Source: Escherichia coli (GTDB lineage Bacteria; Pseudomonadota; Gammaproteobacteria; Enterobacterales; Enterobacteriaceae). Taken from it: a stretch of DNA of 64,000 bases. The DNA lies in assembly GCF_045037415.1 (NCBI RefSeq), contig NZ_CP173438.1; one strand, 5' to 3'. This document shows positions 36,001 to 39,000 of this stretch, in pieces; the first letter of the stretch is position 1, and every line of letters begins with the position of its first letter. The position numbers are program-made.

Positions 36001-39000
36001 CGCATGACATTACGCAAACAGCCACAGGCAGAAGTGCTGGCTCATTATCTCAAGACTGAAGATCTTCAGCGTGTACTGGCTTCTAACTCTCCAGCTAACC
36101 GCATCTTGTTAATAATGGGGGAGTGGTTGGCGGTTCAGCGACGCAATGGACAACTTTCAGATATCCTGTTTATTAGCCTCAACGATCGGCTTAATGATAT
36201 TTCAGCGGTCCTGGCAGGATGCGAGCGCATTGCCTATACGCCAATTCCCTTTGCCTACACCCTGATTTTGCATCGCACCGTGTATCTGTTTTGTATCATG
36301 TTGCCGTTTGCGCTGGTCGTGGACCTGCATTACATGACGCCTTTTATCTCTGTGCTGATTTCCTACACTTTTATTTCGCTGGATTGTCTGGCGGAAGAAC
36401 TGGAAGATCCCTTCGGTACTGAAAACAATGATTTACCGCTGGATGCCATCTGCAACGCTATTGAAATTGACCTGTTACAGATGAATGATGAAGCAGAAAT
36501 TCCAGCGAAAATTCTTCCCGATCGCCATTACCAGCTGACGTGATAATTACTCCGTACGGCGGGCAACAATAAACAGACGCGGAAATGCCAGCAATATCTG
36601 TCCGTTCTCCTGGAGGGGATATTGCTCTTCCAGCATCTGATGGTAGCGCGTAAGAAAATGCTGCTGTTCGCTCTCGGTCAGATCCTGTAACCACGGACGT
36701 AATCCAGTGGCGGTCACCCAATCGATAATCGCCTGGTGCGACGGCATCTGGTGATAGTAAGTGGTTCGCCAGATATCGACCTCACATCCGGCTTCACTCA
36801 GAATATCGTAGTAAGCATGAACGCCAGCCAGCGGCTCACGCCCGCGATCCGGATAATTTTGTTCCCAGGCGACTTCGCGCATGAGCACATGGGTTGGCTC
36901 TAGCCAGTTATCTGGCATCTGTATTGCCAACACACCATGCGAATTAAGTAACGAAACCAAATGAGGAAACAATTCGTAGTGGTCGGGCAGCCATTGCAGT
37001 GAGGCATTAGCAAAAATCAGATCGAGTGCCTGTTCCGGTTGCCAGTTGCGGATATCTGCTTCCACAAACAGGCAGTCTGGCAAAGCACTGCGCGCTTCAG
37101 CAATCATCGCCGGAGATGAGTCGATGCCCGTTATCCTGGCAGCAGGCCAACGTTGGTGTAGAAGGGCGGTGATGTTACCTGGGCCACAGCCAAGATCGGC
37201 AATGTATTCGATATTCTCCAGCGGCACCCTGGCAAGCAGCTCCACCGCCGGACGCGATCGTTCAGCGGCAAAGTGCAGATATAAAGAGGGGTTCCAGTCA
37301 GACATTTTTTTACTCCCGTCAGCGCGTTACCCCAATTGTAGATAAAACTGATAAATTCGCCTCACGGCATCACCCCATTGAACAGACGTTTTTTACGCGG
37401 CCCGGTCATTAAGATTACAGATTCCGGTAGTCAAAGAAGCCACCGCATTAGGATGTGCTTTTTTAAATCCTCCTTTTTATCCGCGATCGCGGATATCGCA
37501 GCGTTTATCCCGTAGAGCGGATAAGATGTGTTTCCAGATTGACTTTATCCTCACTAAAGGATAAAACTGATAATATCCCCTTAAGCGGATAAATTTGCTG
37601 TGGACGTATGACATGATGAGCTTTCAGAAGATCTATAGCCCAACGCAATTGGCGAATGCAATGAAACTGGTTCGCCAGCAAAACGGCTGGACGCAGAGCG
37701 AGTTGGCGAAAAAAATCGGCATTAAGCAGGCGACAATTTCCAATTTCGAAAACAATCCTGACAATACCTCGCTCACGACATTTTTTAAGATTTTACAGTC
37801 GCTTGAACTCTCAATGACGCTATGCGACGCGAAAAATGCCTCGCCAGAAGCAACAGAACAGCAAGATCTGGAGTGGTAATGCCTAAACTAGTCACTTGGA
37901 TGAACAACCAGCGGGTAGGCGAGTTAACGAAGTTAGCCAACGGCGCGCACACCTTTAAGTATGCAGCTGAGTGGTTAGCCAGCCGTTATGCCAGACCGTT
38001 GTCACTTTCGCTGCCATTGCAGAGGGGGAATATCACCTCTGATGCCGTATTTAACTTCTTCGATAACCTGTTACCCGATAGCCCGATTGTACGTGACCGG
38101 ATCGTTAAACGTTATCATGCTAAATCCAGACAACCGTTTGATTTATTGTCAGAAATAGGGCGAGACAGCGTTGGTGCCGTGACGTTAATCCCCGAAGATG
38201 AAACCGTAACGTGTCCGATAATGGCATGGGAAAAGCTTACTGAAGCCAGACTTGAAGAAGTATTAACGGCTTATAAAGCAGATATCCCGTTAGGCATGAT
38301 TAGAGAAGAAAATGACTTTCGCATCTCGGTTGCTGGCGCACAGGAGAAGACTGCGCTGCTCAGAATAGGCAATGACTGGTGCATTCCGAAGGGAATAACG
38401 CCAACGACGCACATTATCAAATTGCCGATTGGCGAAATCAGACAGCCCAATGCGACGCTCGATCTTAGCCAAAGCGTTGATAATGAGTATTACTGTTTGC
38501 TGCTGGCGAAAGAACTCGGGTTGAATGTTCCGGACGCAGAAATCATTAAAGCGGGAAGGGTGCGCGCGTTAGCGGTCGAACGTTTTGACAGGCGTTGGAA
38601 TACTGAGCGAACGGTTTTACTTCGCTTGCCACAGGAGGATATGTGCCAGACATTCGGTTTACCTTCATCGGTGAAATATGAATCAGATGGAGGCCCCGGT
38701 ATCGCGCAAATTATGGCTTTTTTGATGGGGTCCAGCGAGGCGCTGAAAGATCGCTATGATTTTATGAAGTTTCAGGTCTTCCAGTGGTTGATTGGCGCAA
38801 CGGATGGCCATGCAAAAAACTTCTCCGTATTTATTCAGGCTGGCGGCAGTTATCGGCTCACACCATTTTACGACATCATTTCGGCATTTCCGGTCCTTGG
38901 CGGTACGGGAATACACATCAGCGATCTCAAACTGGCAATGGGGCTTAACGCATCCAAAGGCAAAAAAACGGCAATCGATAAAATTTATCCGCGACATTTT

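Follow-up and report, generated by a model that had tools for sequence, protein, structure and literature searches.

The lsr operon, through which Escherichia coli imports and processes autoinducer-2 (AI-2), is presented in passages of Brito 2013 (PMC3595036) as ancestral in the species and as having been lost at least eight times. According to passages of Keizers 2025 (PMC12263705), lsr homology amounts to less than 100 bp in more than 95% of phylogroup B2 isolates, and the lsr-negative strain 83972 has kept tam, which is induced at the transition to stationary phase. Read in the same orientation as the DNA described below, the gene order in K-12 MG1655 is tam, lsrG, lsrF, lsrB, lsrD, lsrC, lsrA, lsrR, lsrK, an autotransporter gene, hipB and hipA, the autotransporter gene being a frameshifted member of the ECSE_1600 family. 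We analysed a 64-kb stretch of E. coli contig NZ_CP173438.1 (assembly GCF_045037415.1), hereafter the window, in which tam and hipB are separated by a spacer of 307 bp (37306-37612). The spacer is bounded by the start codon of tam, which ends at 37305 (minus strand), and by the ATG of hipB at 37613. A preliminary description of this DNA had put the gap at ~300 bp and had stated that K-12 carries lsrKR, lsrACDBFG and an autotransporter pseudogene between hipB and tam; both statements are accurate.

Short-word blastn searches and side-by-side comparisons revealed that the tam-hipB spacer is a collinear mosaic of K-12 pieces, all in plus-strand alignment. The segment 37205-37412 corresponds to K-12 tam, the adjacent spacer and the 3' end of lsrG, 37421-37458 to lsrK, and the sequence from 37462 onward to the region upstream of hipB. 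We therefore regard the spacer as a deletion scar of the lsr operon, old and common in the species, with a probability of about 0.9. Searches of the window by blastn and tblastn with the K-12 lsr genes found no lsr gene, the sole matches being 64 bp of lsrG and 38 bp of lsrK. The preliminary description thus rightly reported the operon as missing here, as is the autotransporter gene, but it overlooked these short lsrG and lsrK remnants. Loss is the only history under which such collinear lsrG and lsrK remnants would be expected; they therefore point to the decay of a full operon, and the base-level structure of the scar provides direct sequence evidence for loss rather than for primary absence.

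The piece next to tam is the ancestral tam-lsrG intergenic spacer, 56 bp long (37306-37361), which is collinear with K-12 (L001 4251-4306) and with strain 142. It is followed by a remnant of the 3' end of lsrG of ~60 bp on the minus strand, from 37362 to ~37420-37424, which comprises the stop codon and the last 16-20 codons. This remnant was detected both by blastn (64 bp at 92% identity to K-12 lsrG, E=1e-18) and by tblastn (LsrG residues 81-96 at 94% identity); the stop codon and the last 16 codons are clear, and the far end is ambiguous within 37412-37424. Next comes an internal fragment of lsrK of 38 bp (37421-37458, plus strand) that covers codons ~449-461 of 530 and keeps the orientation and order of K-12. 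It is identical to K-12 lsrK at 36 of its 38 positions and to lsrK of strain B1_2 at all 38, and its match in the E. coli genome collection has an E value of 7e-9. The last piece, ~37459-37612 (plus strand), is the hipBA control region from ~16-20 bp upstream of the HipB operator O4 to the start of hipB; it is collinear with K-12 (L001 19001-19154) at 98% identity. We rejected the idea that a small open reading frame (ORF) or a translated LsrG tail is encoded in the scar, as the scar lacks a usable ribosome-binding site and has no ATG-led frames other than ones of 5 and 15 codons.

Relative to K-12, the window lacks a first block of ~8.4 kb, from the 5' part of lsrG through most of lsrK, and a second block of ~6.2 kb, from the 3' end of lsrK through the autotransporter gene and its terminator region, for a total of ~14.6 kb. 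The junctions are located at ~37413-37425 between lsrG and lsrK and at ~37458-37461 between lsrK and the hipB upstream region, and both show at most a few bases of microhomology. No insertion sequence (IS), integrase or tRNA features were found near the scar among the window ORFs, in the annotation of strain SK1144 or by an Rfam scan, which returned nothing for 36500-39400 at E<=1. The short microhomology and the absence of IS or repeats at the junctions indicate illegitimate recombination. In the scenario that we favour, an ancestor with a K-12-like arrangement of tam, lsrGFBDCA, lsrRK, autotransporter and hipBA would have suffered an old loss of ~14.6 kb, leaving the 307-bp scar. One break would have joined the lsrG 3' end to lsrK codon ~449 with removal of ~8.4 kb, and the other would have joined lsrK codon ~461 to a point 16-20 bp upstream of O4 with removal of ~6.2 kb. 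These might have been two successive deletions, or a single complex event in which the 38 bp were retained as filler, both the order and the number of events being inferred.

The same scar is widespread. Among 5426 complete E. coli genomes, 964 contain a contiguous match to a 707-bp query that spans both junctions, and 940 records match at >=99% identity. The junction-positive strains include ATCC 25922 and SK1144, and Nissle 1917 matches at 100% across the lsrK-hipB junction (query positions 161-358, i.e., the lsrK fragment and the hipB-upstream side). The proportion of junction-positive genomes, 18%, equals the share of B2 among NCBI genomes given in passages of Keizers et al. (PMC12263705). 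The Clermont markers and luxS lie outside the window, and the lineage was assigned through near-identity to SK1144 (99.985% across 40.7 kb), whose annotation matches the gene order of the window. The window has no coding capacity for lsrACDBFG or lsrRK, its junction is that of recognised B2 strains and its tam gene is intact. In comparison with the lsr-negative B2 genotype as presented in passages of PMC3595036 and PMC12263705, it shares the absence of lsrACDBFG and lsrRK, the short residual homology, the retention of tam and the chromosomal position, and we noted no substantive difference. The scar is fixed in this lineage and is the usual state of phylogroup B2. That B2 strains have lost lsr is already known (Brito 2013; Keizers 2025), so the gene order reported in the preliminary description is both correct and previously published. 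By contrast, the base-level anatomy of the scar was not found in the passages of those two papers that were read; it comprises ~60 bp of lsrG and a 38-bp lsrK fragment, the autotransporter gene having been lost as well, to ~16-20 bp from O4.

Lacking the transporter, kinase, repressor and processing enzymes of the Lsr system, the strain has no means of importing or processing AI-2 via Lsr, going by the description of the system in passages of PMC3595036. The window thus represents an lsr-negative, B2-type E. coli, in which AI-2 is presumably made but cannot be imported through Lsr, a polymorphism that has already been discussed as adaptive or balanced.

Several observations weigh against this account, either as a whole or in part. 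At the left junction, the breakpoint could lie anywhere within 37413-37425, a stretch that has 8 nt of filler with imperfect similarity to lsrG and a possible ATTCC microhomology. Single-deletion intermediates were looked for with two chimeric queries, and neither was covered at >=80% in any of the 5426 complete genomes (0/5426); a two-step order therefore has no support, and one complex event is just as possible. The probable B2 membership of the window comes from the sharing of junctions with ATCC 25922, Nissle 1917 and SK1144 and from the literature, not from marker genes. A strict scan for sigma-70 promoters and intrinsic terminators in 37250-37650 returned nothing, although it also missed the known hipBA promoter and is thus uninformative. 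Lastly, the spacer harbours a direct repeat. The 14-mer GATAAAACTGATAA occurs exactly twice in the window, at 37341-37354 and at 37560-37573 (both plus strand), with an offset of 219 bp, when 0.07 hits would be expected in a window search that allows one mismatch. The similarity of the two copies extends to 19/22 nt, and an exact direct repeat of >=14 nt arose within 307 bp in only 0.025% of 20,000 dinucleotide shuffles (P ~2.5e-4). The preliminary description had noted this repeat, correctly as to its exactness, but had misplaced the two copies by 10 and 3 bp, and had interpreted the upstream one as a duplicated operator that has degenerated, or else as a recombination scar.

The possibility that tam-hipB adjacency is the ancestral state, and that K-12-like strains gained lsr and the autotransporter gene by insertion, has to be considered, as B2 often appears near-basal within E. 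coli and as a second species, Escherichia sp. MOD1-EC7003, also has tam adjoining hipB. In that genome (L006, NZ_PTRE01000081.1, ~2750-2890, minus strand), the segment that corresponds to window 37413-37461 contains a scar of its own. This scar retains the 3' end of lsrG up to K-12 coordinate 4360, followed by lsrK pieces (K-12 12290-12379, 12390-12410 and 12601-12621), 7 unassigned nt and then the hipB upstream sequence from the same T-run as in the window. The two scars thus resemble each other in their outer limits, with the lsrG 3' end kept to within ~10 bp of the limit in the window and the same T-run on the hipB side. In contrast, their lsrK fragments do not overlap, that of the window being at K-12 12731-12768, and the flanks have diverged by ~7-9%. 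Although the outer limits are within ~10 bp of each other, the non-overlapping lsrK pieces indicate that the two events were independent; no MOD1-type scar was found in the E. coli genome collection. Collinear lsrG and lsrK fragments in both lsr-less lineages, with differing lsrK pieces, are expected only from decay, and the ancestral-state reconstruction and outgroup distribution in passages of PMC3595036 also favour ancestral presence. Being already contradicted by the lsr remnants, an insertion in K-12-like strains is very unlikely, and deletion remains the reading that we adopt.

The second alternative concerns the 14-mer and requires a description of the hipBA control region. The preliminary description had listed four canonical HipB operators, and all four are indeed present as exact TATCC-N8-GGATA matches on the plus strand: O4 at 37478-37495, O3 at 37506-37523, O2 at 37546-37563 and O1 at 37574-37591. 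They are separated by 10, 22 and 10 bp (O4-O3, O3-O2 and O2-O1), and a TTGACT motif lies within the array (37539-37544, plus strand). The operator consensus and the cooperative binding of HipB have been described (PMC3920265, PMC3376134), and the spacing in K-12 has been published as 10/21/10 (PMC4150777). As in K-12, the four exact operators are in the same order and hipB and hipA are intact. The window differs from K-12 in the O2-O1 spacer, which reads GATAAT where K-12 has a perfect TATAAT (G here, T in K-12; window 37539-37574 vs L001 19082-19117), in the O3-O2 gap (22 bp here, 21 bp in K-12) and in the sequence upstream of O4, which is the lsrK fragment here and the autotransporter terminator region in K-12. 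The lsr-positive strain PS10-3 and MOD1-EC7003 agree with the window on both this base and the gap, which makes the K-12 promoter the derived allele. The deletion left the hipBA promoter and its four operators untouched, so that the control region is complete, and autoregulation should work as in K-12 (PMC3920265, PMC3376134).

The downstream copy of the 14-mer joins O2 and O1, as the preliminary description had it: it consists of GATA, the last four bases of the O2 right half-site, and the 10-bp O2-O1 spacer. Within the tam-lsrG spacer, the upstream copy occupies the positions 36-49 bp upstream of the tam ATG and is 8 bp away from the lsrG stop. Could it be a fifth HipB operator in degenerate form, or a fragment duplicated from the array, to which HipB is still recruited? 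Its exact 14-nt identity with the O2/O1 joint (19/22 nt when extended), the improbability of such a repeat inside 307 bp (P ~2.5e-4) and a 7/10 pseudo-operator, TTACC-N8-AGATA, that ends inside it would be in keeping with this idea. Nevertheless, the shared string is mostly operator spacer rather than recognised half-sites. Furthermore, the base before GATA is A instead of G, the string is then followed by ATTCG instead of TATCC, and there is no partner half-site; a search for the operator consensus with <=1 mismatch yielded no match at the upstream 14-mer. We scored the region with a position weight matrix (PWM) built from O1-O4, with which the real operators reach 24-26 bits. The best operator-like site near the upstream copy is the pseudo-operator (37327-37344), with 5.2 bits and rank 54th in the window, and the position equivalent to O1 scores -10.5 bits. 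On this PWM evidence a fifth operator was rejected. The upstream copy is also outside the phased array: in the window it lies 133 bp upstream of O4, and in PS10-3 the distance is 14.8 kb. A fifth exact TATCC-N8-GGATA, TATCCAGGTCGCAGGATA, is present elsewhere in the window, at 43220-43237 inside a fimbrial usher gene, 5.6 kb from hipB. It is missing from the top 15 PWM sites, whose scores go down to 8.55 bits, and it is probably a chance match, as 1.4 hits with <=1 mismatch are expected per window.

The distribution of the 14-mer in other genomes speaks in the same direction. The upstream 14-mer is exact at the orthologous tam-lsrG site in two lsr-positive strains, 142 and PS10-3, which means that the repeat is older than the deletion. 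Moreover, a 50-mer identical to 37316-37365 was found in 1451 genomes, including O157:H7 genomes in which the match overlaps an annotated lsrG. In PS10-3, where lsr, the autotransporter gene and hipBA are intact, the same two exact copies are 14.8 kb apart, and with the upstream string in the tam-lsrG spacer at such a distance from hipB, it did not originate in a local duplication of the array. The two copies also vary independently between lineages. In K-12, the upstream site reads GATAAAATTGATAA, which matches at 13/14 positions, and the downstream site reads GATAAAACTTATAA, so that the two agree at 12/14. In MOD1-EC7003, the upstream 14-mer is exact and the downstream site reads GATAAAACTGACAA, with an agreement of 13/14. 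The upstream copy as a degenerate duplicated operator, proposed in the preliminary description, is hence not borne out and can be regarded as highly improbable. As for the shuffling result, the P value is real, but the spacer is the wrong frame of reference: in 35 kb of PS10-3, the 14-mer pair is one of 4 exact direct pairs of >=14 nt, and 2.3 are expected for a uniform base composition. Judging from these sequence comparisons, the pair appears to be a chance match between two old, A+T-rich sequences from promoter regions, with ~15 kb between them in the ancestor that had not yet undergone the deletion. The loss of lsr would have brought them to within 219 bp of each other, with the repeat itself playing no part in the event, and the 14-mer is not worth pursuing as a HipB site.

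The least likely proposal is that the two 14-mers mediated the deletion or are the target-site duplication of an element. In its favour, they are direct repeats on either side of the scar in the window and of the whole lsr-autotransporter block in PS10-3. However, when direct repeats recombine, a single copy is left at the junction, and here both survive. Moreover, the junctions are ~60-70 bp from the upstream copy and ~100 bp from the downstream one, in lsr-positive strains the bracketed segment would include O4-O2 and the hipBA -35 element but not O1, which is an implausible boundary for an element, and no IS, integrase or tRNA features are present. Neither a single copy left at a junction nor a pair flanking an element was observed. 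The upstream 14-mer is thus not the recombination scar that the preliminary description had envisaged; it predates the deletion and lies ~60 bp or more from the junctions, and the real scar is the mosaic of 37362-37461.

With lsrACDBFG gone, tam must be transcribed from its own promoter, in the retained 56-bp spacer. The gene is known to be RpoS-dependent (PMC2907692) and to have its own E-sigma-S start site in vitro (PMC3141248). Reading the minus strand, we identified a candidate -10 hexamer, TACAAT (37335-37340), within TCTACAATT (37334-37342). The latter resembles a sigma-S -10 element with the characteristic upstream C, and its assignment as the tam promoter is inferred from this resemblance. 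On the minus strand, the candidate -10 is followed by GGGAG and then by the tam ATG, and the 14-mer constitutes the A+T-rich spacer immediately upstream of the -10. In lsr-positive strains, tam immediately follows lsrG; here it would now depend on this spacer promoter, and the tam and hipBA promoters would diverge from positions ~200 bp apart. The stretch 37332-37372 is identical in MOD1-EC7003, which has diverged by ~8%, while the adjoining lsrG remnant has changed, and this identity lends mild support to a constraint on the stretch. The exact 24-mer around the upstream copy matched only MOD1-EC7003 in a search of one representative genome per species, a search whose demand for an exact match is probably too strict for other species, so that it does not gauge wider conservation.

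The limits shared by the scars of the window and of MOD1-EC7003 suggest either independent erosion to the same endpoints or a hot spot. They also hint, from two lineages only, that selection has kept the control regions of tam and hipBA. In a more speculative version, which we consider improbable, both lineages would have eroded the same ~15-kb block to limits set by selection, ~105-120 bp upstream of the tam ATG and ~16-20 bp upstream of O4. If so, the scars would serve as a natural deletion map that delimits the minimal control regions of tam and hipBA. In its boldest form, this proposal would extend to a link between hipBA and tam. The putative sigma-S promoter of tam is ~130 bp from the operator array, and bending or bridging of the DNA by HipB-HipA could then affect tam. 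The weak pseudo-operator at 37327-37344 might serve as an auxiliary site, creating in B2 a hipBA-tam link that K-12 lacks.

The tam-lsr-hip interval is a recurrent deletion hot spot. Strain 142 has lost hipB and the 5' part of hipA (L002 31888-33068), which leaves a HipA pseudogene without an antitoxin gene. Strain B1_2 has lost the 5' end of tam together with lsrG, as well as most of the stretch from the autotransporter gene to hipA (L003 3439-3933 and 12780-14611).

The genes on either side of the scar are intact. The tam gene (36547-37305, minus strand) encodes a trans-aconitate 2-methyltransferase of 252 residues, with 13 amino-acid differences from the K-12 protein and zero internal stops, and is annotated as tam in SK1144. 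On the other side, hipB (37613-37879, plus strand; 88 residues), for which the SK1144 annotation agrees, overlaps by 1 bp with hipA (37879-39201, plus strand; 440 residues). Beyond tam are ORFs for yneE (35578-36543), uxaB (33981-35432) and a dgcF-like gene (32336-33754), all on the plus strand. The next genes after hipA form a fimbrial operon, which is intact here (39931-43212 region) and codes for a FimA-like protein (40062-40673), a fimbrial chaperone (41026-41745) and a full usher of 883 residues (41787-44438). In K-12, ~3.3 kb of this operon have been lost and the usher pseudogene ydeT is left. Conversely, at ~53672-54589 the window lacks ~6.3 kb relative to K-12 (yddA, yddB and the 5' part of pqqL), which represents another lineage-specific deletion; beside ydeM, SK1144 has only a C-terminal M16 metallopeptidase pseudogene annotated. 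Further small pseudogene remnants are found in the same 40 kb of SK1144 (L005 11194-11295 and 3749-3957, corresponding to window ~28300-28400 and ~20850-21060), with yneK cut to ~100 bp and fragments of ydeI and of a 2-oxo-tetronate isomerase gene. Together, these remnants suggest that this part of the chromosome has undergone extensive reduction in the lineage.

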